The notes: generated from the letters alone by a model not told the origin. A stretch of DNA of 64,000 bases from Alphaproteobacteria bacterium (GCA_016869375.1 VGEH01000001.1:18669-82668); one strand, 5' to 3'; positions 2,708 through 62,674 are shown, numbered from the stretch's first letter. Translations and numbers: made by a program.

Positions 2708-3130
2708 CTAGCCGACGATCTCGGTCTCAGCGAAAAAGTAGGCGATCTCGATCTTCGCGTTCTCGAGCGAGTCCGAGCCATGCACGGAATTCGCCTCGAT
2801 CGACTCCGCGAACTGCTTGCGGATGGTGCCCTCGGCGGCGTTCGCCGGGTTGGTCGCGCCCATGACCTCGCGGTTCTTGGCGACGGCATTCTCGCCCTCA
2901 AGGACCTGGACCACGACGGGGCCGGAGGTCATGAATTTGCAGAGGTCGCCGAAGAACGGCCGTGCCTTGTGGACGGCATAGAAGCCCTCGGCCTGGGCCT
3001 GGGTCAGGCGGACGCGCTTCTGCGCGACGATGCGGAGGCCGGCGCCTTCCAGCACCGCATTGACCTTGCCGGTGAGGTTCCGGCGCGTCGCATCCGGCTT
3101 GATGATCGAAAAGGTACGCTCGAGCGCCAT
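2708..3130 (-). CDS. ndk: nucleoside diphosphate kinase
   Basis: 140 aa: [28 protein letters not shown]...[20 protein letters not shown], canonical NDK. Confidence 0.95.
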
Positions 3131-3227
3131 CGCTGAACTCCTGGCTACGTCTTATGGGTTGTTCGAAAGTCGCAGGCTTATAGCGGCGGGTCTTTCGCAC
3201 CGCAACCGCGGCCGCTACCCTTCCGCC

Positions 3228-4037
3228 ATGAGCGGCGGCGACTACGTTCACGGCTATTCCGAGCGCGAGCACCAGCGGCTGCTCGACCAGGCCGGCAGCC
3301 TGGTCGAGCTCCTGCACGCCGACACCGCCTTCCCGGCCGGCAGCGAGGTGCTGGAGGCGGGCTGCGGCGTCGGCGCGCAGACCGTGACCATCGCCGCCCA
3401 AAGCCCCGGCGCCCGCTTTCTCTCGATCGACATCTCGCCCGCCTCGCTCGCCGCGGCCAGGGAGCGTGTGACCAAGGCGGGCCTCGTCAACGTCACCTTC
3501 CAGCAGGCCGACATCTTCGACCTGCCTTTCCCGCCGACGCGCTTCGACCATGTCTTCGTCTGCTTCGTGCTCGAGCATCTGAAGGATCCGGCTGGCGCGC
3601 TCCTCCGGCTCAAGACCATGCTGAAGCCGGGTGGCAGCATCACCGTGATCGAAGGCGATCATGGCTCGACCTACTTCCATCCCGACAACGAGGATGCGCG
3701 GCGCGCAGTCCAATGCCTGGTCGAGGTGCAGGCGCGAATGGGCGGCAACTCGCTCATCGGCCGCGAGCTCTATCCGCACCTCGTGCAGGCGGGCTTCGGC
3801 CAAGTCTCGGTGTCGCCGCGCATGGTCTATGTCGACGGCAGCAAGCCGGCGTTGATCGAGGGCTTCACACGCAACACCTTCACCACAATGGTCGAGGGCG
3901 TGCGCGAACCGGCTCTCGCTGCCGGATTGATGGACGCGGCGTCCTGGCAGCGCGGCATCGACGGCCTCAACCGTTCGGCCACCGAGGACGGCGTGTTCTG
4001 CTACACCTTCTTCAAGGCGCGCGGCATCGCGCCATGA
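3228..4037 (+). CDS. class I SAM-dependent methyltransferase
   Basis: Start taken at ATG 3228 (MSGGDYVHGYSEREHQRLLDQ..) because the longer ORF would overlap ndk. Has the motif I sequence LEAGCGVGAQ and the DIFDLPFPPTRFDHVFVCFVLEHL region. Confidence 0.8.
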   Translation: MSGGDYVHGYSEREHQRLLDQAGSLVELLHADTAFPAGSEVLEAGCGVGAQTVTIAAQSPGARFLSIDISPASLAAARERVTKAGLVNVTFQQADIFDLPFPPTRFDHVFVCFVLEHLKDPAGALLRLKTMLKPGGSITVIEGDHGSTYFHPDNEDARRAVQCLVEVQARMGGNSLIGRELYPHLVQAGFGQVSVSPRMVYVDGSKPALIEGFTRNTFTTMVEGVREPALAAGLMDAASWQRGIDGLNRSATEDGVFCYTFFKARGIAP

Positions 4038-4277: not shown

Positions 4278-6050
4278 TCAAGACCGGCGCTCGCCGGTCG
4301 CGGCATGCTTCGCCAGCGCATCGCCGAGCGCGGCCGGACGGATCGGCTTCGCCAGGTAGTCGTCGAAGCCGGCGGCCATCGCCGACTGCCGGTCTTCCTC
4401 GAAGACATTCCCGGTGAGCGCGATGATCGGCGTGGCGCGATTGGGGCCTGGCTGAGCGCGGATCTGACGGGTCGCCTCCAGCCCGTCCATGTCCGGCATC
4501 TGGATGTCCATCAGGATAGCGTCGAACGGCCGGGCCCGGGCCATCTCGACCGCAGCCCGACCACCCCCGGCAAGCTCGACGTCGAAGCCGAGGCCGCCGA
4601 CCAGCCGGGCAATCAGCTGACGGTTCACGTCGTTGTCCTCCACCAGAAGGACGCATGCGCGTCGTTCGGGCGGCGACGGTGACTCCGCCTCGATCGCGGC
4701 AGCGGCTCTCGCCCCTGTCGCCGGCAGCCGGGCAGTAAACCAGAACGTGGTTCCGCTGCCGACCTCGCTCTGGAAGTCGATATGGCCGTCCATCGCGTCC
4801 ACGAGCTGCTTGCAGATCGCAAGGCCAAGCCCGGCGCCGCCGAATCGCCGGGTGATGGTCTGGTCGGCCTGGGTGAATTTCTCGAACACGCGCGAGCGCA
4901 GCTGCTCGGACATGCCGATGCCCGTGTCCGCGACCGAGAATTTCAGCAGCCCTGTCTCCGTCGAAGGTGCAACGGAAATCCGAATGCTGCCCCGGTCGGT
5001 GAACTTGATCGCATTGGTCAGCAGGTTGAGGAGGACCTGGCGCAGCCTCGTCGGATCGCCCAGGCGCCAGCCGCCGGCATCGTCGCCGATGTCGAGTTGC
5101 ATCGACAGCCCCTTGGCCTTTGCGCGTGGCTCGGCCGTGGCGAAGGCGCCGCGCAGCATCTCCGAGAGGTCGAACGGGATCCTCTCGAGGACGATCTGCC
5201 CGGCTTCGAGCTTCGAGAGATCCAGGATATCGCCGAGCAGCTCGGTCAACTGTAGAGACGAGGCAAGCGCCTGATCGACGAGCTGCCTCTGCTCGGCGGT
5301 CAGAGACGTCGCGGCGAGAAGATCGACGCCGCTGATGACCGAGGCGAGCGGCGTCCTGAGCTCGTGGCTCATGACGGCAAGGAACTCGGACTTGGCCTGG
5401 TTCGCGATCTCGGCGCGGCGGCGCGCTGCCCGGGACTCGGCGAACCATCGGAACACCACGAGCGACGAGGTCAGCAGCGTCAGCAGCAGCATGATCGCGA
5501 AGGCGCCGACCGCCGCATAGTCGAGGTCGCTGTAGAAAAGGAAGAACAGCGCGACCGGGACGAGAACCCCGCCCACGAACCCGGCAGCCGCGAGCGGGAG
5601 CACCGCCAGCGTCGCCGCGCCGCCGGCGGCGACGCCGGCAAACATGACGCACAAGGTCAGGGTCTCGGCCGGTCCCGCGCCGGGTACGAAGACGAGCGCG
5701 CTGCTCCAGAGCAGGCCGCCGAGAGTCGCCCAGAGGACGGGCTTGCGCCAGCTCCCGGCCCGCACGGTCGGCGGCAGCACGCGCCCGCGGAATCTGATCC
5801 AGCGCCGGAGCTGGAACATCGAGAATCCGCAGGCCAGCCCGGCCCAGAGAAGGATCAGCGGGCGGTTGCCCTCGGGCCACAGCACGATGCTGATGATCAG
5901 CGCATTGACGATGCTCGCAAGCGCATTGATCGGCGTCGTCTGCGCCAGGACGGCGAGCTGGTCGCGCCTCAACGCCTCGGGATAGAAGGTCTCTCGCCAG
6001 CCTGCGACCAACGCCTCGAGCCTAGGCCGCACCGGTCGATCCCGCGTCAC
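4278..6050 (-). CDS. hybrid sensor histidine kinase/response regulator with multi-TM N-terminus
   Basis: 590 aa. Hydrophobic N-terminal sensor region, H-box SHELRTPL, N/G boxes (LLNLLTNAIKFT, DTGIGM, GGAGLGLAI), and a C-terminal receiver (LLVEDNDVNRQL ... DAILMDIQMPDMDG ... KP). Confidence 0.85.
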   Translation of the reverse strand: MTRDRPVRPRLEALVAGWRETFYPEALRRDQLAVLAQTTPINALASIVNALIISIVLWPEGNRPLILLWAGLACGFSMFQLRRWIRFRGRVLPPTVRAGSWRKPVLWATLGGLLWSSALVFVPGAGPAETLTLCVMFAGVAAGGAATLAVLPLAAAGFVGGVLVPVALFFLFYSDLDYAAVGAFAIMLLLTLLTSSLVVFRWFAESRAARRRAEIANQAKSEFLAVMSHELRTPLASVISGVDLLAATSLTAEQRQLVDQALASSLQLTELLGDILDLSKLEAGQIVLERIPFDLSEMLRGAFATAEPRAKAKGLSMQLDIGDDAGGWRLGDPTRLRQVLLNLLTNAIKFTDRGSIRISVAPSTETGLLKFSVADTGIGMSEQLRSRVFEKFTQADQTITRRFGGAGLGLAICKQLVDAMDGHIDFQSEVGSGTTFWFTARLPATGARAAAAIEAESPSPPERRACVLLVEDNDVNRQLIARLVGGLGFDVELAGGGRAAVEMARARPFDAILMDIQMPDMDGLEATRQIRAQPGPNRATPIIALTGNVFEEDRQSAMAAGFDDYLAKPIRPAALGDALAKHAATGERRS

Positions 6051-6899: not shown

Positions 6900-7349
6900 T
6901 TAGGCGCCCTTCTCCCAGCTTCCGGCGTCGTTCTGCTTCCAGTAGGTGACGGTGTGGCCGGCCGCCTTGTAGGCGGTCCAATGCGCGCGGGCGCGATCGA
7001 CCTGCGCCGGATCGCGACCGTCGAAGATCTCGAAGCAGCGCTCGTAGTCGCCGAGCTTCGCCGTCTCCTGCCCGTCGACCAGCATCACGAACTGCGCGCC
7101 GTTCGGATTCTCGTCATCGGCGGTGAGCCAGACCGGCTGGTGCCCCGCCTGGCCGTCCTTGGCCGTGCCGTGCGGCAGAAAGGAATTGGGGTCGAAAGTC
7201 CAGAGCTGGCCTGAGAGCGATTCCACGCGCTCGGACGATCCGGCGATGACGACCGCGCGCTTCTGCAATGAGAGCGCGCGGTCGAGCAGCCTTGCGAGCG
7301 CCCAGTCAAGCGATCGCGTCGTCAGGTGATAGAAGCCGATTTCGGTCAC
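6900..7349 (-). CDS. holC: DNA polymerase III subunit chi
   Basis: GTG start overlapping the pepA stop (GTGA). Product VTEIGFYHLTTRSLDWALARLLDRALSLQKRAVVIAGSSERVESLSGQLWTFDP...PHG.. is typical HolC. The longer in-frame ORF (to 7610) lies inside pepA and is rejected. Confidence 0.8.
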   Translation of the reverse strand: MTEIGFYHLTTRSLDWALARLLDRALSLQKRAVVIAGSSERVESLSGQLWTFDPNSFLPHGTAKDGQAGHQPVWLTADDENPNGAQFVMLVDGQETAKLGDYERCFEIFDGRDPAQVDRARAHWTAYKAAGHTVTYWKQNDAGSWEKGA

Positions 7350-8951: not shown

Positions 8952-10601
8952 GTGCTCTCCTTCCTCGCCTCGCCCTGGGCGCGGGTTCTCGTGCTTGCCA
9001 TGACGCTGGCGGCGTTGCTGCCGGGCGCGCTTCGCCTGCCGGCGATCGACCGCGACGAATCCCGCTACGCGCAGGCGACCAAGCAGATGCTGGAGACTAA
9101 GGATTTCGTCCGTATCCGCTTCCAGGACGAGCCGCGCAACAAGAAGCCGGCCGGAATCCACTGGATGCAGGCGGCGGCGGTCTCGCTGATCGCGCCCGAC
9201 TCGAAGACGATCTGGGTCTACCGCCTGCCGTCGATCCTCGGCGTGCTGCTCGCCGTCGGTCTGACCATGGCGATCGCGCGCCGCCTCTACGACCCGATGA
9301 CCGCGACGCTCTCCGGCGGCCTCGTCGGCGCCGCCATGCTCACGCAGATCATGGGCCAGCAGGCGACCACCGACGGCGCGCTGCTCGCCGCCGCCGTCGC
9401 CGCGCAGGGCGCGCTCGCGCTCGCCTATGTGCGCCAGCGACGCGGCGAGCTCGTCAGGCCAGGTCTCGCCTTCGCCTTCTGGGCGGCGGAAGGCATCGCC
9501 ATCCTGATCAAGGGACCGGTGATCCTCGCCGTCACCGCACTCACCGTGATCACGCTCTCGGTCGCCGACAAGGATTGGCGCTGGCTGCGCCTCCTGCGCC
9601 CGCTGCTCGGCATCCCGCTGATGCTGGCGATCGCGAGCCCGTGGTTCATCGCGGTCCAGCTCGCGACCGATGGCGGCTTCGTCAGCGATGCGGTTCGCAA
9701 CGACCTCCTGCCCAAGCTGATCGGCGGGCACGAGAGTCATGGCGCGCGCCCCGGCTACTATTTGGCCCTGGTCAGCGTCACCTTCCTTCCCGCCTCTCTC
9801 GTGCTGTGGCCCGCGCTCAAGGAAGCCTGGAGCGACCGGCTCGACGCCCCGACTCGTGCGCTGCTCGCCTGGGCCTTGCCGGCGTGGTTCCTGTTCGAGG
9901 CCGTGCCGACCAAGCTTCCGCACTACGTCCTGCCGCTCTTCCCTGCTCTGGCGATGCTAGCGGCGCGTCTTCTCGTCCGCACCGCCGATGGCGAGACGAC
10001 GGCGCTCGCGCGGGGCTGGAGCGTCGCCGCGGCGGCGCCCTGGCTCCTTGCCAGCCTCGCGCTGGCCGCCGCCCCGGCGGTGCTGGGATACGCCGTCGAC
10101 CAGCGACTCGATCCGGCCGCGCTCGCGCTCGGGATCGGAGCGATGGCCACGACGCTGATCGCCGCGATTGCCGCAGGCCGAAGGCGGTGGCTCGGCGCGA
10201 CTGTGATATCGGCCCTGGCGACCTGGGCGATCCTGACGACGACCTTCGGCCAGATCCTGCCGCGCCTCGACGCGGTCTGGCTCGGCCGCGAGGCCGCCGA
10301 GACCATCGCGGCGAAGGCACCGGGGACTGCGGCGGCCGACATCGCCGCCTCGGGCTATGCCGAACCGAGCATGGTGTTCGCCGTCGGTACGCCGATCCGC
10401 CTGATCGATGCCGGCCTCGCCGGCCAATTCCTCGCCGAGGCGCCCGGGCGAGTCGCTCTGATCGGCCGCGAGGAGCAGTCGGCTTTCCTGGCCGCCGTAG
10501 CCGCCACGGGCGCCCGGGCCGAAGCGCTCGACACCCTCGCCGGCTTCAACTATTCCAAGGGCCGGTGGACCACGCTGACGCTCTATCGGCGGCACCCGTG
10601 A
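8952..10601 (+). CDS. ArnT/PMT-family (GT39/GT83-like) integral membrane glycosyltransferase
   Basis: 549 aa, ~12 TM segments. Has the ArnT-type motif DRDESRYAQATKQML..DFV..RFQDEPRNKKPAGIHW (DExRYA ... KP...W). Confidence 0.8.
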   Translation: MLSFLASPWARVLVLAMTLAALLPGALRLPAIDRDESRYAQATKQMLETKDFVRIRFQDEPRNKKPAGIHWMQAAAVSLIAPDSKTIWVYRLPSILGVLLAVGLTMAIARRLYDPMTATLSGGLVGAAMLTQIMGQQATTDGALLAAAVAAQGALALAYVRQRRGELVRPGLAFAFWAAEGIAILIKGPVILAVTALTVITLSVADKDWRWLRLLRPLLGIPLMLAIASPWFIAVQLATDGGFVSDAVRNDLLPKLIGGHESHGARPGYYLALVSVTFLPASLVLWPALKEAWSDRLDAPTRALLAWALPAWFLFEAVPTKLPHYVLPLFPALAMLAARLLVRTADGETTALARGWSVAAAAPWLLASLALAAAPAVLGYAVDQRLDPAALALGIGAMATTLIAAIAAGRRRWLGATVISALATWAILTTTFGQILPRLDAVWLGREAAETIAAKAPGTAAADIAASGYAEPSMVFAVGTPIRLIDAGLAGQFLAEAPGRVALIGREEQSAFLAAVAATGARAEALDTLAGFNYSKGRWTTLTLYRRHP

Positions 10602-30454: not shown

Positions 30455-31230
30455 TGCCGCGCTTCGCCGCCAACCTATCGACGATGTTCCGCGAGCATGA
30501 CTGGCTCGCGCGCCCGATGGCTGCCAAGCGCGCCGGCTTCGATGCGGTCGAGATCCAATACCCTTACGAGATCGACCTGGAGGCGCTGGCCCGCGCCAAG
30601 CGCGATGCGGATGTGCAGTGGCTGATGATCAACGTTCCGGCCGGCAACCAGGCTGCCGGCGAGCGTGGCATCGCCTGCCTCCCCGGCCGCGAGGCCGACT
30701 TCCGCGAAGGCATCGCGCTGTGCCGGCGCTACGGCGAGGCCCTCGGCATCTTCCAGGTCAACACGCCGGCCGGCATCCCGCCGACGGGCGTCGAGCGCGC
30801 CCGCATCGAGGAAACGCTGATCGGCAATCTGAACTACGCCGCCGAGGAGCTCGGCAAGGCCGGCATCAAGGTGCTGGTCGAGCCGCTCAATACCCGCGAC
30901 GTCCCCGGCTTCTTCGTCACCCGCGCCGATCAGGCGCTCGACCTGATCGACCGCGCCGGCCATGCCAATCTCGGGCTGCTCCACGACCTCTATCACGCAC
31001 AGGTGATGGTCGGCGACCTGATGCGAAATCTGGAGCGGCTGATGCCGCGCATCGGCCATATCCAGTTTGCCGATCCGCCCGGCCGCCACGAGCCCGGAAG
31101 CGGCGAGCTGAACTGGCCGGCGCTGTTCGCCCTGATCGACAAGCTCGGTTACCGCGGCTGGGTATCCGCGGAGTACTTTCCAACCGGAAATACCGCGGAC
31201 AGCCTGGGCTGGATGGCGACGCCGGGCTAG
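30454..31230 (+). CDS. hydroxypyruvate isomerase family (TIM-barrel sugar-phosphate isomerase/epimerase)
   Basis: ATG overlaps the pyrE stop (ATGA). MPRFAANLSTMFRE...VEPLN...HDLYHAQV..GHIQFAD is typical of the Hyi/OtnI family. Confidence 0.8.
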   Translation: MPRFAANLSTMFREHDWLARPMAAKRAGFDAVEIQYPYEIDLEALARAKRDADVQWLMINVPAGNQAAGERGIACLPGREADFREGIALCRRYGEALGIFQVNTPAGIPPTGVERARIEETLIGNLNYAAEELGKAGIKVLVEPLNTRDVPGFFVTRADQALDLIDRAGHANLGLLHDLYHAQVMVGDLMRNLERLMPRIGHIQFADPPGRHEPGSGELNWPALFALIDKLGYRGWVSAEYFPTGNTADSLGWMATPG

Positions 31231-31300
31231 GCCGCCCTTCCGCCGAAGATGAACGCCGTAATATAGTCGCCGCCAGCCAAGTCCATTCCGGGAGGTTGTC

Positions 31301-32966
31301 TATGCGTTATCTTGCAACAGGCGTGCTGGCTGCGTCGCTGGCGCTTACGGGCGCCGCGTTCGCCCAGCAGAAGGCCGGAGAACTGACGGTCGCAATGACC
31401 CAGTTCCCCTCGACCCTCAATCCGCATATCGACTCGATGCTGGCCAAGACGATCGTGCTGCACATGACGCAGCGGCCGCTGACCACCTACAACGAGAAAT
31501 GGGAGGCGATCTGCCTCCTCTGCACCGAGCTTCCGACGATCGAGAACGGCAAGGCCAAGCCGGTCGATCTGCCCGACGGCAAGAAGGGCGTGAAGGTCAC
31601 CTACACGATCCACCCGAACGCCAAATGGGGCGACGGCACGCCGGTCACGACCAAGGACGTGATCTTCACCTACGAGGTCGGCAAGAACCCGGACACGGGC
31701 GTTGCCAACATGGAGCAGTTCCGCGAGATCGTCTCGATCGAGGCGCATGACGACAAGAGCTTCACGGTCACCAAGGACAAGCTGAAGTTCACCTACAACC
31801 TCATGAACGACTTCCGGCTGATCCCGGAGCATATCGAGAAGGCGAATTTCGATCCGAAGAACGCCGCCGAGTACAAGAAGAAGACCGCCTTCGACACCAA
31901 CACGACAAACCCCGGCCTCTTCTTCGGCCCCTACAAGATCGCCGAGATCGTGACCTCGAGCCACGTCTCCTTCGTGCCCAACCCCACCTGGTTCGGCGAC
32001 AAGGCGAAGTTCAACCGCATCACATTCAAGGTGATCGAGAACACCGCGGCGATGGAAGCCAACCTGCTCTCGGGCTCGGTCGACTACATCATGGGCGAGC
32101 TCGGCGTCACCATCGACCAGGCGATCGCGTTCCAGAAGCGCCAGGCCGACAAATACAATTACGACTTCAAGCCCGGCCTCGTGTACGAGCACATCGATCT
32201 CAACCTCGACAACCCGCTGCTCAAGGACAAGCGCGTCCGCCAGGCGCTGCTCTACGCGATCAACCGCGAGCAGATCGTCCAGCAGCTCTTCGAGGGCAAG
32301 CAGCCGGTCGCGCACACCAACATCAACCCGCTCGACTGGATCTACCACAAGGACGTCAAGACCTATCGTCACGACGCCAAGCGCGCGGGCGAGCTTCTCG
32401 ACGCCGCCGGCTTCAACGTGATGAAGGACGGCTATCGCCACAACGCCGCCGGCGACCGCCTCCGCTTCGAGCTCATGACCACGGCCGGCAACCGCTCGCG
32501 CGAGCTGGTGCAGCAGGTCCTCCAGAGCCAGTGGAAGGCGGTCGGCGTCGAGATCGTGATCAAGAACGAGCCGGCCCGCGTCTTCTTCGGCGAGACCACG
32601 AAGGAGCGCAAATACACCGGCATGGCGCTGTTCGCCTGGATCTCCTCGCCGGAGAACGTGCCGCTGACGATCCTCTCCTCCAAGCACATCCCGACCAAGG
32701 AGAACAACTGGGCGGGTCAGAACTACACGGGCTACAAGAACCCGGAGATGGACAAGCTGCTCGAGGAAATCGAGGTCGAGCTCGATCGGAACAAGCGGCT
32801 CGCGCTCTGGACCAAGTTCCAGGCGATCTACTCGGAGGACCTGCCGGTCCTGCCGCTGTTCTTCCGCGCCGAGCCCTTCATCGTGCCGAAGTGGCTGAAG
32901 GGCATCGTGCCGACGGGGCACCAGTACGGCACCACGATGTGGTCGCAGAACTGGGCCGCGAACTGA
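31301..32966 (+). CDS. ABC transporter substrate-binding protein, family 5 (peptide/nickel/opine type)
   Basis: 555 aa with a signal peptide (MRYLATGVLAASLALTGAAFAQ). SBP_bac_5 architecture. AT-richer codon usage than neighbours. Confidence 0.85.
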
Positions 32967-33023: not shown

Positions 33024-33980
33024 ATGACACGCTTCCTCTCGCTGCGCTTCCTGCAGGCGCTGATCGTGGTCCTGGTGATGTCGTTCGTCGTCTACGGCCT
33101 GATCGGGCTGATGCCGGGCGATCCGATCGACATCATGCTCTCGGGCGATCCCAACATGACCGCGGCCGACGCGGCGCGGCTGCGCGCGCTCTACGGCGTC
33201 GACAAGCCGATCATCGAGCGCTATTTCGAATGGCTGAGGAACGCCGTCGGCGGCGATTTCGGCTATTCCCGCCAGCATAACCAGCCGGTGCTGCACATCC
33301 TGCTGCCGCGGCTGGTGAACACGCTCTACCTGATGATGGGCGCCTTCCTGATCTCGGTGATCGTCGCGATCCCCGCCGGCGTCTACGCCGCGCGCCACCC
33401 GCGCTCGCTGGTCGACCAGGCGATCAACCTCTTCTGCTTCGCCGGCATCTCGGTGCCGGTGTTCTTCCTCGCCCTCCTGCTGATCATCCTCTTCGCGGTC
33501 CAGCTCGGCATCCTGCCGGCCAGCGGCACGCGCACGGTCGGCGCGCAATCTTCGTTCACCGACCAGCTTCGCTACCTGGCGCTGCCGGTTCTCACGCTTA
33601 CCATCGCCAACATCGCCCAGGTCACCCGCTATGTGCGCTCGGGCATGATCGAGGTCCTGCGCGAGGACTACATCCGGACGGCGCGCGCCAAGGGCGCCGA
33701 CGAGAACCGCGTGGTCTGGAAGCACGCGCTCCGCAACGCCCTGATCCCGACGGTGACGATCATGGCGCTCGAATGCGGCACGCTGCTCTCCGGCGCGCTG
33801 ATCACCGAGACCATGTTCGCCTATCTCGGCATGGGGAAGCTGATCTTCGATTCCATCCTCGCCAACGACTACAACGTGGCGCTGGTCGGCCTGCTCTTCG
33901 CCTGCAGCGTGACGCTGCTCCTGAACCTGATCGCGGACGTGCTCTACGCCGCGCTCGATCCGCGCATCTCCTATCGCTAG
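33024..33980 (+). CDS. ABC transporter permease (DppB/OppB-like)
   Basis: 318 aa, 6 TM segments, and the EAA-like loop in the region YIRTARAKGADENRVVWKHALRNALIP. Confidence 0.85.
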   Translation: MTRFLSLRFLQALIVVLVMSFVVYGLIGLMPGDPIDIMLSGDPNMTAADAARLRALYGVDKPIIERYFEWLRNAVGGDFGYSRQHNQPVLHILLPRLVNTLYLMMGAFLISVIVAIPAGVYAARHPRSLVDQAINLFCFAGISVPVFFLALLLIILFAVQLGILPASGTRTVGAQSSFTDQLRYLALPVLTLTIANIAQVTRYVRSGMIEVLREDYIRTARAKGADENRVVWKHALRNALIPTVTIMALECGTLLSGALITETMFAYLGMGKLIFDSILANDYNVALVGLLFACSVTLLLNLIADVLYAALDPRISYR

Positions 33981-51777: not shown

Positions 51778-51881
51778 CTAGGGATCCCTAAAAAGACTAA
51801 AGGTCTATCGCCGCACAATGACTGATGATCTGCCTCGCCGCGCCGGTCGTAGATGCTGAGCACGCGCGGAGAACGAGGACG

Positions 51882-52292
51882 ATGAAACCCTGGCTCGCCA
51901 CATATCTCGCTACCGGCTTGGTCCTCCTTGCCGGCGATGTGCTGTGGCTCTCGACCATGACCGGGATCCTCTACCGGCCGGCGCTCGGCGCGCTGATGGC
52001 GGAGCAGCCCGATCTCGTGGCCGCCGCGCTCTTCTATCTCGTCTATGTCTTCGGCATCGTGTTCTTCGCCGTCGCGCCGGCGCTGGCGTCGGGCCGGTGG
52101 TCCGCCGCGCTCGCCCGTGGCGCCGCGCTCGGCCTCGTCGCCTATGGCACCTACGACCTCACCAACCAGGCGACGCTCCGCGGCTGGCCCGTCCTCGTCA
52201 CCGTCGTCGACATCGCCTGGGGCGTCGTGCTCACGGCCGCCGCGGCCATCGCCGGATATCTCGCCGGGCGCGCGGCGGCGCGGACGTCCTGA
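51882..52292 (+). CDS. DUF2177 family membrane protein
   Basis: 136 aa with 4 TM helices (MKPWLATYLATGLVLLAGDVLWLSTMTGILYRPALG...). Confidence 0.65.
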   Translation: MKPWLATYLATGLVLLAGDVLWLSTMTGILYRPALGALMAEQPDLVAAALFYLVYVFGIVFFAVAPALASGRWSAALARGAALGLVAYGTYDLTNQATLRGWPVLVTVVDIAWGVVLTAAAAIAGYLAGRAAARTS

Positions 52293-52334
52293 TGCTATGA
52301 TCGGCGCCCATCGGCTTCACGGCACGGATAGACC

Positions 52335-52748
52335 ATGCCTCTCGACGATCAGAACTGGGGCGGCGGCGGACCGAGGCGGGCGCCGTCGAAGAACGTGCTC
52401 GGCGGCAAGCTCGAGGATTGCTCGCTTTCGCCCGTGACCGGTTTCTTCCGCAACGGCTGCTGCGACACCTCGGCCCAGGATGTCGGCAGCCACACGGTGT
52501 GCTGCGTCACCACCGAGGAGTTCCTCAGCTACTCCAGGCGCGTCGGCAACGATCTCTCGACGCCGTTTCCCGAGTACGGGTTTCCGGGATTGAAGCCCGG
52601 CGACCGCTGGTGCCTCTGCGCGCCGCGCTGGCAGCAGGCGCTCGAAGCCGGCATGGCGCCCAAGGTCGTGCTGCGCGCCACGCATGAAGGCGCGCTCGCC
52701 TATTGCGCGCTCGAGGACCTGAAGAAATACGCGATCGACCTGGCGTGA
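52335..52748 (+). CDS. DUF2237 family protein
   Basis: 137 aa with conserved Cys pairs (GFFRNGCCDT...HTVCCV...WCLCAPRW). Confidence 0.7.
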   Translation: MPLDDQNWGGGGPRRAPSKNVLGGKLEDCSLSPVTGFFRNGCCDTSAQDVGSHTVCCVTTEEFLSYSRRVGNDLSTPFPEYGFPGLKPGDRWCLCAPRWQQALEAGMAPKVVLRATHEGALAYCALEDLKKYAIDLA

Positions 52749-52959: not shown

Positions 52960-53096
52960 CCCCGCTCTCCGCCGAGCATCGGGACAGCGAGCGCCAGGGT
53001 CAATCTAAACCAAGGTTAACGGCGGACAGATTGGCGTGAAGCCGCGCAGGAGTTCGGCTACCGTCGACGCGTCCGTTCCCCTTCTGGAGACAAGGC

Positions 53097-53564
53097 ATGG
53101 CCGACATCGGCAAACCGGCACCCGAGTTCAAACTCAAATCCCATGAAGGCAAGGACGTCGCCTTGAGCGACTTCCGTGGCTCGAAATGGGTCGTGATCTC
53201 GGCATACCCCTTCGCCTTCACCGGTGGGTGAAGCAATCAGACCTCTACTTTCAACCGTGCGTTGAAGCAATTCGATGAGCGTGGTGCCCAGCTTCTGGGC
53301 CTGTCGTGCGATACCCATCATGCCCTTCGCGTCTGGGCGGCCGCCCTCGGCGGCATCGGGTATCCGCTGTTGTCCGATCACTGTCCGCAGGGGAAGACGG
53401 CGCAAGGCCTCGGCATCCTGAATGCCGAGGGCGGCTATCCCGCGCGGTCGGTGACGGTGATCGACCCGCAGGGAATCGTGCGCGCTTTCCACACCTACCC
53501 GCCTGGCCAGCTGCCGGTGCCGGGCGAGGTGCTGGCGGAGCTCGTCAGCCTGCAGGGTAAGTAA
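53097..53564 (+). CDS. peroxiredoxin with in-frame TGA at the peroxidatic-Cys position (candidate selenoprotein; otherwise a TGA-disrupted pseudogene)
   Basis: ATG 53097 with a GGAGA RBS. Reads MADIGKPAPEFKLKSHEGKDVALSDFRGSKWVVISAYPFAFTGG-TGA(53229-53231)-SNQTSTFNRALKQFDERGAQLLGLSCDTHHALRVWAA...VIDPQGIVRAFHTY... The TGA falls exactly on the C of the universal Prx motif P-x3-T-x2-C, and the frame is open and Prx-like on both sides. The ORF track splits it into 53097..53231 and 53262..53564. Confidence 0.55.
53249..53267 (+). ncRNA. candidate bacterial SECIS-like hairpin downstream of the in-frame UGA
   Basis: tttcaa-ccgtgcg-ttgaag: 6-bp stem (including G.U) and a 7-nt loop containing GU, with the loop 26-32 nt after the U of UGA. 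Weak; needs covariance-model confirmation. Confidence 0.25.
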
Positions 53565-53603
53565 GCCTAGAGAGATCCCGTCGAGCGAAGCGCTCGGCGG
53601 GAT

Positions 53604-55088
53604 CTACCACCCCTTCTCCTTCTCCAGCGGATAGATCGGCACGCGGCGGTGCTTGTAGGTGAAGGTGGTGAGGTCCGCCGTGGTGACGCCCGGCGTTCCC
53701 ATCCAGATCATCTCCTTGGCGATCGGCTCCATCGCCGGTCGTGGGGAGTGCACGCCCTTGGCGACGATGACCTTCTGGTCCTTGGGCTCGATGCCGAGGG
53801 CGCGGAACTGCTGCAGGCTGGAGGAGCCGGCGCCGTAGGTCGTCAGCACGATGGTCCAGCCGTCGTCGGTCGCGATCGCCGCGCTCGGCCCGTCGTTGAA
53901 GAAGCGGAAACCGCCATGGACGGGCCCGGTCTCCTCGTAGCGGCCATCGGTGAGCGCGGTGACCTTGCCCTTGATCGCGAAGGGCTTGCCGTGGCGCCCG
54001 TCGATCTTGCCGCCGACGGCGAGATCGATGCGGCCGCCGACACCGGCGGCCTGGCACGCCTTCACGCCTTCGGGATCGCAGAGCGCCTGCAGCACGCCGG
54101 GCACCTTGAGCCGGCGTGCGGCGTGCAGGACCAAGGTCGAGTCGGCCGGGCTGCCGCCGCCGACATTGTCGCCGACATCGAACAGCACCACCGGGTTCAC
54201 GTTCGCGGCCCGGGCGCGCATCAGCGCCTCGTCGACCGGCGTGCCGCCGGTGTTGAGCGCGGCGCGCATCGACCAGGCGGCGTCGGAGAGCGTCCTGGCG
54301 ATCTCGTTGGCGAGCGCCTGGTTGTTGTCGGTGACGGCGATGAAGGACATGCCCATCTCGGCGACGTCGGCATAGGGATAGCCTTCCACCACGCTGACCG
54401 AGAGCACGCCTGGGCGCCGGCGCTGCTCGTCGGCGAGGCGGATGAGGTCCGACATCGGCCTGTCGCTGGTGCCCTGGTTCAGGATGTTGACCAGCAGCGG
54501 CGGCGTCTCCAGCGCCGTCGTCGGCCTGATCTTGCCGCGCACCATGTCGAGCACGAGGCGCGCGCAGAGCTCGGCCTGCTCCTTGGTGTCGATATGCGGG
54601 TTGGTCTGGTAGACGGTGGTGATGTCCGCGTTCTCGATCATCTGGCGCGAGATGTTCGCGTGCATGTCGAGGGCGACGCCGATCGGGACCTTAGGCCCGA
54701 CCGTCTCGCGCACGCGGCGGATCAGCTCGCCATCCGCATCCGGCCAGGTCTCCGAGACCGCGGCGCCATGCTGGGGCAGCAGCACCGCGTCCCACGGCCC
54801 GTTGTCGCGGATGCCCGAGATGATGCGGTCCATGAAGTAGCGGATGGCCTCGTCGGTGATCGCCGCCATCGGCGTCAGCCTGGCGAAGAACAGCGGCACC
54901 AGCTCGACCTCGGGATCCGCATCGGCGACGGCGAAGAAGCCGGAGAGCGTCGCCTTCGACTCGGCGTATTCCTTGCGGAGCTGATCGCCTTCGAGGATGC
55001 CTGCCCGGCGGAACTTGTCCAGGCTGGCCGGGACCGTGGAGAAGGTGTTCGACTCGTGCATGAAGCCGGCGGTGGCGATGCGGATCAT
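53604..55088 (-). CDS. M81-family metallopeptidase (MlrC/microcystinase C-like)
   Basis: Start at ATG 55088 (MIRIATAGFMHESNTF..), typical of the M81/MlrC N-terminus. 494 aa. Confidence 0.85.
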   Translation of the reverse strand: MIRIATAGFMHESNTFSTVPASLDKFRRAGILEGDQLRKEYAESKATLSGFFAVADADPEVELVPLFFARLTPMAAITDEAIRYFMDRIISGIRDNGPWDAVLLPQHGAAVSETWPDADGELIRRVRETVGPKVPIGVALDMHANISRQMIENADITTVYQTNPHIDTKEQAELCARLVLDMVRGKIRPTTALETPPLLVNILNQGTSDRPMSDLIRLADEQRRRPGVLSVSVVEGYPYADVAEMGMSFIAVTDNNQALANEIARTLSDAAWSMRAALNTGGTPVDEALMRARAANVNPVVLFDVGDNVGGGSPADSTLVLHAARRLKVPGVLQALCDPEGVKACQAAGVGGRIDLAVGGKIDGRHGKPFAIKGKVTALTDGRYEETGPVHGGFRFFNDGPSAAIATDDGWTIVLTTYGAGSSSLQQFRALGIEPKDQKVIVAKGVHSPRPAMEPIAKEMIWMGTPGVTTADLTTFTYKHRRVPIYPLEKEKGW

Positions 55089-61690: not shown

Positions 61691-62674
61691 ATGGGCAAGA
61701 CACGGGTTCCGGTCCTGGCGCTGGCGGCGACGCTCGCCTTCGCCGCATCGGCCGAGGCGCAGCAGCGCGTCAGCGTCTACACGGCGCACACCGCCAATAT
61801 CGTCGAGCGGCTCCTGCCGGAGTTCGAGAAGGCCACGGGCATGAAAGCCGATGTGGTCAAGGCGGGCTCGGGCGACATCATCAACCGCGTGCGCGCCGAG
61901 CGCGCCAACCCGAAGGCCGACGTGATCTGGTCGATCGGCGCCGAGCTGCTCGAGGCCAACAACGAGCTGCTCGAAGCCTACCAGCCGAAGGAGTTCGACA
62001 AGATCGCGGACGCCTTCAAGGGTACCGGCACCTGGCTGCCCTATACCGGCATCGTCAACGTCTTCATGGTCAACACCAAGAAGCTGAAGCCGGAGGAGTA
62101 TCCGAAGACCTGGCTCGACCTCGCCAAGCCGCAATACAAGAACCAGATCTCGATGGCGGCGGCCGACAAGTCCGGCTCCTCCTACATGCAGCTCAACACC
62201 TTCCTCACCATCTACGGCGACGCCAATGACGGCTGGGGCAAGTTCAAGTCGGTGTTCGGCAACCTCGCCCTCTCGAACAGCTCCGGCGCGGTGCCGCGCT
62301 TCGTCAATGACGGCGAGGCCGCGATCGGGCTTACGCTCGAGGACAACGCCTATCTGTTCGTGAAGGGCGGCGGCCCGGTCGCCATCGTCTATCCGGAAGA
62401 CGGCACCTCGGCGATCGCCGACGGCATGGCGCTGGTCAAGGGCGCGCCGAACGCCGCCGGCGGCAAGGCCTTCATCGACTGGGCGCTGTCGACACCGACC
62501 CAGGACCTCGTCGTCCAGGAGCTCGGCCGCCGGCCGATCCGCAAGGACGCGAAGCCGGTGGGCAACCTCAAGTCGCTCGATCAGGTCAAGCTGATCAAGT
62601 ACGACATCAAGAAGGCGGCGGATAAGCGCCAGGAATACATGGACAAGTGGAACGACCTGGTGGCGGCGCGCTGA
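61691..62674 (+). CDS. ABC transporter substrate-binding protein (iron(III)/spermidine-type SBP_bac_1/8 fold)
   Basis: 327 aa with a signal peptide (MGKTRVPVLALAATLAFAASAEAQ). Resembles FbpA/thiamine-type periplasmic binding proteins. Confidence 0.8.
   Translation: MGKTRVPVLALAATLAFAASAEAQQRVSVYTAHTANIVERLLPEFEKATGMKADVVKAGSGDIINRVRAERANPKADVIWSIGAELLEANNELLEAYQPKEFDKIADAFKGTGTWLPYTGIVNVFMVNTKKLKPEEYPKTWLDLAKPQYKNQISMAAADKSGSSYMQLNTFLTIYGDANDGWGKFKSVFGNLALSNSSGAVPRFVNDGEAAIGLTLEDNAYLFVKGGGPVAIVYPEDGTSAIADGMALVKGAPNAAGGKAFIDWALSTPTQDLVVQELGRRPIRKDAKPVGNLKSLDQVKLIKYDIKKAADKRQEYMDKWNDLVAAR

Follow-up and report, generated by a model that had tools for sequence, protein, structure and literature searches.

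Background

Peroxiredoxins of the AhpC/TSA fold (Pfam PF00578) in which selenocysteine (Sec, U) takes the place of the peroxidatic Cys in a PxxxTxxU motif, and whose genes carry a bacterial selenocysteine insertion sequence (bSECIS) after the UGA codon, have been described by Zhang, Gladyshev and colleagues as the Prx (TxxU) selenoprotein family (PMC1794560, PMC2398784, PMC5029168, PMC13188914). They occur in aquatic bacteria and their Cys-form homologues far outnumber the Sec-forms. Twelve such selenoproteins were known in 2006 (PMC1794560), 253 sequences were found in the Global Ocean Sampling (GOS) data (PMC2398784), and a genome survey of 2016 counted 91 Sec-peroxiredoxins in 78 organisms (PMC5029168). 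Here we analyze a gene at positions 53097-53564 of a 64,000-nt stretch of DNA from an Alphaproteobacteria bacterium (GCA_016869375.1, VGEH01000001.1:18669-82668; hereafter the window), which resembles this family in fold, motif and hairpin after the UGA, and very probably encodes a stand-alone, monocistronic peroxiredoxin of 155 residues, AhpE-like, with Sec as its predicted peroxidatic residue. A preliminary description of the gene had called Sec-peroxiredoxins rare; the surveys cited above contradict this and place them among the most abundant selenoprotein families in aquatic metagenomes. The papers cited give no breakdown by peroxiredoxin subfamily; the gene belongs to an AhpE-like clade with the motif FTGG-U-[ST]NQTS.

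Knowledge of TxxU Sec-peroxiredoxins goes back to PrxU of Eubacterium acidaminophilum, which is cited in PMC13188914 (ref. 83 therein) as experimentally verified. PrxU (NCBIfam model NF040737, 233 positions) has Sec at the peroxidatic position, as predicted for the product analyzed here, but it is a longer protein of the Prx1/AhpC type, whereas the window protein has no C-terminal extension. The gene thus adds an unannotated AhpE-like member, not one of the PrxU type. In AhpE of Mycobacterium tuberculosis, a 1-Cys enzyme whose reductant is mycoredoxin-1/mycothiol, the residue used is Cys45.

Sec insertion in bacteria depends on a hairpin situated just downstream of the UGA inside the coding region, with Escherichia coli fdhF as the prototype. 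The published bSECIS model comprises a loop of 3-9 nt with a G among its two leading bases followed by U, a stem of 4-16 bp, a spacing of 16-37 nt and a minimum free energy (MFE) of -7.5 kcal/mol or lower (PMC13188914).

Results and discussion

A peroxiredoxin reading frame with a single internal TGA

The elements of the gene are listed below in window coordinates; residue numbers are those of the predicted product.

53086-53090, + strand: Shine-Dalgarno-like GGAGA with a 6-nt spacer to ATG 53097, read from the sequence
53097-53564, + strand: coding sequence of a 155-residue AhpE-like peroxiredoxin with predicted Sec (U) at residue 45, from translation, Pfam AhpC-TSA, PDB 1XXU and dN/dS (ratio of nonsynonymous to synonymous substitution rates)
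53208-53231, + strand: active-site motif P38-F-A-F-T42-G-G-U45 (PxxxTxxU)
53229-53231, + strand: in-frame TGA, predicted Sec codon at the peroxidatic position
53307-53309, + strand: Cys71 (GLSCD), candidate resolving Cys
53445-53447, + strand: Arg117, conserved peroxiredoxin active-site Arg, aligned with the AhpE Arg in "...anRgtfvvd"

The frame opened by ATG 53097 extends to the TAA at 53562-53564 and reads MADIGKPAPEFKLKSHEGKDVALSDFRGSKWVVISAYPFAFTGG, a stop, then SNQTSTFNRALKQF...LQGK, with the TGA at codon 45 as the sole internal stop. This translation is identical to that of the preliminary description, which had also noted the GGAGA ribosome-binding site, had placed the TGA at the C of a P-x-x-x-T-x-x-C motif (here P38-F-A-F-T42-G-G-stop) and had reported GC content at third codon positions (GC3) to be as high after the TGA as before. 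All of this stands: GC3 is 0.77 before and 0.79 after the TGA, and the in-frame UGA shares its alignment column with the redox-active Cys of two homologues, namely the Cys of a full-length Cys-form relative, P0003, and Cys45 of AhpE.

When U is read as C, Pfam AhpC-TSA matches the product with an E-value of 2e-33 (115.4 bits against a gathering cutoff of 26); the alignment spans residues 4-130 of 155 and profile positions 1-123 of 124 and is continuous across the TGA. The PxxxTxxC(U) motif and the distal Arg are complete, P38, T42, U45 (the Cys/Sec column, TGA in the window) and R117 all being invariant in the family alignment A1. Among solved structures the best relative is M. tuberculosis AhpE (1XXU, E 2.6e-20), and AhpE entries take the first seven places among the PDB matches (E ~3e-20), with Prx1 following at E 4e-17. 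The AhpE residue in the TGA column, Cys45, is the one that we take to be peroxidatic. By the ranking of the PDB matches and by its length without a C-terminal extension the predicted product is assigned to the AhpE-like subfamily. It is of the same length class as AhpE (Rv2238c; PDB 1XXU, 1XVW, 4X0X; 153 vs 155 residues), aligns with it over residues 1-139 and has P-[LF]-A-F-T-G-x-C/U, PLLSDF-x-PHG and the active-site Arg in common with it. The similarity is moderate, however (76 bits at the E-value given above), and the window protein differs in having UGA, predicted to be read as Sec, at position 45, in an extra conserved Cys71 and in being proteobacterial. No NCBIfam model reaches its own cutoff for the window protein; the PrxU model gives 67.5 bits against the 270 needed.

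In two places the window protein departs from its family. Both concern motifs that are otherwise well conserved. Residues 74-75 (53316-53321) lie in THHAL, for which relatives show T[VI]P[AS]L; at residues 96-98 (53382-53390) SDHCPQG replaces the SDF[HYW]PHG of relatives and AhpE, the closest relative (L011) having SDYYPQG. The latter change adds a third, non-conserved Cys, Cys96.

The TGA is fixed in relatives under purifying selection

Relatives were compared from alpha- and betaproteobacterial metagenome-assembled genomes (MAGs), SAR202 Chloroflexi and marine metagenome contigs, and comprised 38 distinct Sec-form genes. All 38 have TGA at the peroxidatic codon, at protein identities to the window product of 55-88% and lower. 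The same codon is present in 17/17 species-representative genomes (MAGs labeled Alphaproteobacteria, Rhodospirillaceae, Burkholderiales/Betaproteobacteria and one SAR202 Chloroflexi) and in 24 of the 25 metagenome loci, the exception being the Cys-form P0003 (56% identity), which reads PAAFTGGCSNQTS (FTGGCSNQTS) and has TGC at the TGA column. The TGA is likewise carried by four clusters (50% identity) that lie further away, were found with P0003 as the query and range in GC content from 43 to 67%. Every locus fetched shows a 44-codon AhpC-like open reading frame (ORF), then the in-frame TGA, then an ORF of 99-110 codons.

These genes are well diverged. Their nucleotide identity to the window gene is 58-85% and the proportion of synonymous differences (pS) is ~0.5-0.6, while codons 2-44 have a dN/dS of 0.21 and codons 46-155 one of 0.26, and no further stops or frameshifts are present in the 34 genes compared. 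The UGA and the frame on both sides of it are accordingly kept among orthologues under purifying selection. Reassignment of TGA in the genetic code was ruled out, since TGA is the ordinary stop codon of 25 of the 35 window genes.

An invariant hairpin follows the TGA

Two further elements lie in the coding sequence downstream of the TGA.

53249-53267, + strand: predicted bSECIS hairpin with 5' arm UUUCAAC (53249-53255), loop CGUGC (53256-53260) and 3' arm GUUGAAG (53261-53267)
53250-53267, + strand: 18-nt invariant block, codons F52 N R A L K57 (TTC AAC CGT GCG TTG AAG), in 33 distinct proteobacterial homologues

A short hairpin with a GU-containing loop had been pointed out at this position, 17 nt after the TGA, in the preliminary description, and the comparison of homologues bears it out. 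Consensus folding with RNAalifold of 30-31 distinct sequences gave this hairpin (53249-53255 paired with 53261-53267) as the sole consensus structure. Over the block F52-K57 codon identity is 1.0 in all 528 pairs of the 33 proteobacterial genes, against ~0.6 gene-wide, even though these sequences are only 67-85% identical to the window overall. The block is the longest invariant nucleotide run in the gene, the next longest being 5 nt, and it contains six of the 12 invariant third positions found among 155 codons; the expected number of runs of six consecutive invariant third positions is ~3e-5. Two of the codons that it fixes are rare, CGT making up 4.2% of Arg and TTG 3.5% of Leu codons in the window genes. 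The Cys-form P0003 keeps the F-N-R-A-L peptide but encodes it with CGG and CTG, by which the stem is abolished. The hairpin is under constraint at the RNA level.

Its geometry lies within the ranges of the bSECIS model: the loop has 5 nt, with U after a G at position 2, and starts 24 nt after the UGA, and the stem has 7 bp. It resembles the fdhF prototype in its location but differs in an A/U-rich and weak stem, in lacking the bulged U of fdhF and in a core whose sequence is invariant across two proteobacterial classes. An alternative fold, GUUGAA-GCAA-UUCGAU with a lower stem, which is the MFE structure in the window and the alphaproteobacterial clade, was rejected, as the betaproteobacterial sequences cannot form it.

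Two architectures of the putative SECIS are seen within the Sec-peroxiredoxin family. The short UUCAAC-CGUGC-GUUGAA hairpin is present in the window, in the alpha- and betaproteobacterial clades and in two further loci (L061 and L065). In SAR202, L060 and L063 its place is taken by a longer hairpin whose lower stem (CUCCUCG/CGAGGAG) is conserved and whose apex varies; the sites are as follows.

L025 (SAR202), 10133-10194: longer hairpin
L060, 2974-3040: longer hairpin
L063, 960-1025: longer hairpin

A second selenoprotein gene beside orthologues in Betaproteobacteria

A scan of the fetched DNA for in-frame TGA codons with a SECIS-like hairpin detected a second gene in six betaproteobacterial loci, where it is convergent with the peroxiredoxin orthologue.

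L017, 4873-5985, - strand: WAxxUGC selenoprotein gene, TGA at 5634; likewise in L014, L019, L034, L036 and L042

The gene reads ...YAWAPY-TGA-GCSRD..., and its product, read with C in place of U, reaches 489.5 bits (cutoff 300) with NF041054, the NCBIfam model "ResA-like WAxxUGC motif-containing protein", which is a curated selenoprotein family corresponding to the "Prx-like (UGC-containing)" proteins of the GOS study. Like the peroxiredoxin gene it is split by gene callers. The WAxxUGC protein also has a thioredoxin fold, but it belongs to a different family, is ~366 residues long, has a U-G-C motif and is not encoded in the window, where neither a WAxxUGC gene nor any other CGUGY-loop site behind an in-frame TGA was found.

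The hairpin of the WAxxUGC gene, CCUGCC-CGUGU-GGCAGG, has its loop starting 20 nt after the UGA; the loop is nearly identical to the CGUGC of the peroxiredoxin gene and the stem is unrelated. When the two sets of hairpins are aligned on their common structure, 5/7 pairs are changed on both sides and 89% of the cells are still paired. Near-equal loops on unrelated stems are expected if a single SelB reads both mRNAs. A WAxxUGC neighbor with so similar a loop is indirect evidence that genomes carrying this peroxiredoxin decode Sec.

Predicted translation and catalytic cycle

Translation starts, as read from the sequence, at ATG 53097. At the UGA (53229-53231) the hairpin at 53249-53267 would recruit SelB.GTP.Sec-tRNASec, so that Sec would be inserted instead of termination taking place, and translation would proceed to the TAA ending at 53564. 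Sec machinery, on whose presence the preliminary description had made its reading conditional (selA, selB, selC and selD), is presumed to be encoded in this genome. By analogy with the family, the U45 selenolate in the site P38-x-x-x-T42-x-x-U45...R117 would reduce H2O2 or organic hydroperoxides, itself becoming a selenenic acid.

Two routes of recycling can be envisaged: the selenenic acid may be resolved by Cys71, through an intramolecular selenenylsulfide, or directly by a thiol or redoxin from outside, the route of the 1-Cys enzyme AhpE. The GLSCD region had been described as resolving-Cys-like, and its Cys is conserved in part of the family only. Residue 71 is Cys in 33/33 proteobacterial sequences and in L060; it is Ser in SAR202, Val in L061 and L063, Ala in L065 and Thr in the Cys-form. 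A selenenylsulfide with Cys71 is therefore possible but is not a family-wide requirement.

A broader proposal can be made only tentatively, and taken as a whole we consider it somewhat doubtful: that the gene represents a distinct, uncatalogued clade of AhpE-type Sec-peroxiredoxins, widely distributed among aerobic bacteria of fresh and sea water (Alpha- and Betaproteobacteria, SAR202 and others), whose genes annotation pipelines split systematically; that its SECIS core is frozen (UUCAAC-CGUGC-GUUGAA), the CGUGY loop common to it and to the neighboring WAxxUGC gene being a lineage-specific SelB motif; and that Cys71 provides a selenenylsulfide step absent from AhpE.

Evidence against Sec insertion and alternative explanations

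Several results weigh against the decoding of the UGA as Sec. Searches of the window and of ~0.55 Mb of related loci found neither selA, selB and selD (tblastn with the E. coli proteins from NC_000913.3) nor a tRNA-Sec (ARAGORN). On its own the hairpin has a free energy of -4.7 kcal/mol in the window (z -1.69, with 13/200 shuffled sequences folding equally well), and so does not reach the -7.5 kcal/mol that the bSECIS model sets as its limit; the 62-nt region (-10.7) has as its MFE fold a different, non-conserved structure, which is not significant (z +0.62). Because the stem is invariant in the proteobacterial clade, classical covariation there is confined to one U.G/C-G alternation, and no Rfam family was matched, either in the whole window at gathering thresholds or in 53180-53340 at E-values up to 10. 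The alternation concerns the bottom pair of the stem, which is U.G in 16 sequences and C-G in 17, and the C-G variant of the hairpin has -7.1 kcal/mol. The case for the hairpin rests on conservation and not on energy, since thermodynamic significance is absent.

The 10 kb beyond the window end, reached in a second assembly through the gene at 61691-62674, contain ABC transporter and sarcosine oxidase genes and no sel genes. The same approach gave no additional DNA from 3030-4037, and from P0001 it gave a 3.8-kb ENA contig only. At 6936-7015 (+ strand) of the window itself ARAGORN reported a tRNA-Thr(tgt) of 80 nt whose anticodon is at position 33. The Rfam scan of the whole window at gathering thresholds showed no tRNA there, and the prediction may be spurious or the tRNA aberrant.

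The alternative that survives best, which we nevertheless regard as improbable, is read-through of the UGA independent of a Sec system, with a near-cognate tRNA or Cys-tRNASec inserting Cys, Trp or Arg at low yield and the hairpin acting as a read-through stimulator. Conservation of the frame on both sides needs read-through only, not Sec as such, and a weak hairpin and a search that found no Sec machinery would both suit it. Position 45, however, calls for a catalytic residue, and an enzyme with Trp or Arg there would be inactive; with Cys there, selection would not be expected to retain TGA over TGC for so long, and the TGC form that does exist lacks the hairpin. Furthermore, the geometry and the GU loop of the hairpin fit the bSECIS model, and related genomes have a near-identical loop behind the UGA of a gene from a curated selenoprotein family.

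Less probable still is the production of two separate proteins as annotated, that is a 44-residue N-terminal peptide and a 100-residue "redoxin domain" protein initiated at TTG 53262, although gene callers predict them in every record. A protein made from the C-terminal piece would be missing both the initial beta-strands of the fold and the peroxidatic residue; the TTG proposed as its start is part of the hairpin and is not preceded by a separate ribosome-binding site; and the AhpC-TSA match runs unbroken across the TGA. Moreover, the two pieces are always in the same frame, split only by the TGA and conserved sense codons (S/T-N-Q-T-S-x-F-N-R-A).

A recent pseudogene or an assembly or sequencing error that turned the TGC of an ordinary Cys-peroxiredoxin into TGA deserves hardly any credence. 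In its favor, the two codons differ by one base, a Cys-form homologue exists and the DNA searched gave no Sec machinery. Against it, 38 distinct genes, assembled independently and belonging to several phyla, share this TGA; they have low dN/dS on both sides at a pS of ~0.5-0.6 and show no further decay; the independent ENA contig L056 encodes an identical downstream product behind the same 44-residue N-terminal ORF; and neutral decay cannot account for the invariant 18-nt hairpin. NCBI, ENA, JGI and Logan assemblies all contributed contigs, which excludes an artefact of one shared pipeline. The fixed TGA, the intact frames, the purifying selection on both sides and the unchanged genetic code together therefore make the pseudogene, error and two-product readings untenable. 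The gene is, as the preliminary description had favored over a recent pseudogene, very probably that of a Sec-peroxiredoxin.

Annotation of the gene and of its relatives

The preliminary description had predicted that standard pipelines would split the gene, as has indeed happened.

53262-53564, + strand: truncated 100-residue ORF, GenBank MBM3545376.1 "redoxin domain-containing protein", whose TTG "start" lies inside the 3' arm of the hairpin

The 100-residue ORF is an annotation artefact. Relatives are annotated as ORFs of 44 and 99 residues. In a collection of 5.8 billion protein clusters the >50 clusters of 99-101 residues that we found match no more than the C-terminal 64-65% of the query. 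There were N-terminal fragments as well, with ...PFAFTGG as their end, and the Cys-form P0003 was the one close homologue of full length; a full-length U-containing version of the FTGG-U-[ST]NQTS clade is not present in this collection. Automated selenoprotein annotation misses the clade because no NCBIfam model reaches its cutoff.

The practical yield of the analysis is the correction of this annotation, as MBM3545376.1 and dozens of related entries describe a fragment of 100 residues that lacks the catalytic residue. This mis-annotation would hide an antioxidant selenoenzyme and thereby also the dependence on selenium of bacteria that are abundant in lakes and oceans. An AhpE-type example is added to the known Sec-peroxiredoxins and no concept in the field is changed. 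Further yields are a putative SECIS that is well supported and whose core is unusually frozen, and a natural pair of Sec- and Cys-forms, the former with the hairpin and the latter with the same peptide but without it, of use for the study of SECIS recognition and of the catalytic benefit of Sec over Cys.

Genetic context

The neighbors of the gene are a sulfatase, DUF2177, DUF2237, a small divergent ORF, a convergent MlrC/M81 peptidase gene and a peptide ABC transporter, none of them related to redox or selenium functions. The neighborhood differs among relatives, so the peroxiredoxin gene is a stand-alone unit. The DUF2177 gene (predicted membrane protein) and the DUF2237 gene lie directly upstream (51825-52748, + strand) and have the same order in contig L056; they are not linked to the peroxiredoxin in more distant relatives.

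Scans around the gene for sigma-70 promoter and intrinsic-terminator consensus sequences found nothing. One palindromic element is present downstream.

53573-53605, no strand assigned: 15-bp inverted repeat AGATCCCGTCGAGCG / CGCTCGGCGGGATCT, 93% complementary, with a 3-nt loop, between the convergent peroxiredoxin and MlrC-like genes

The repeat overlaps the stop codon of the MlrC-like gene and has no T-run; it is possibly a bidirectional terminator hairpin.

Scans of the window for an in-frame TGA flanked on either side by sequence with coding potential, with and without the condition of a SECIS-like hairpin, gave no other selenoprotein gene. Their lone match was the TGA at 32964, which is situated between two genes in the same frame (30618-32966 and 33024-33980, + strand) and has a hairpin with a 10-bp stem just downstream; it looks like an ordinary gene end.

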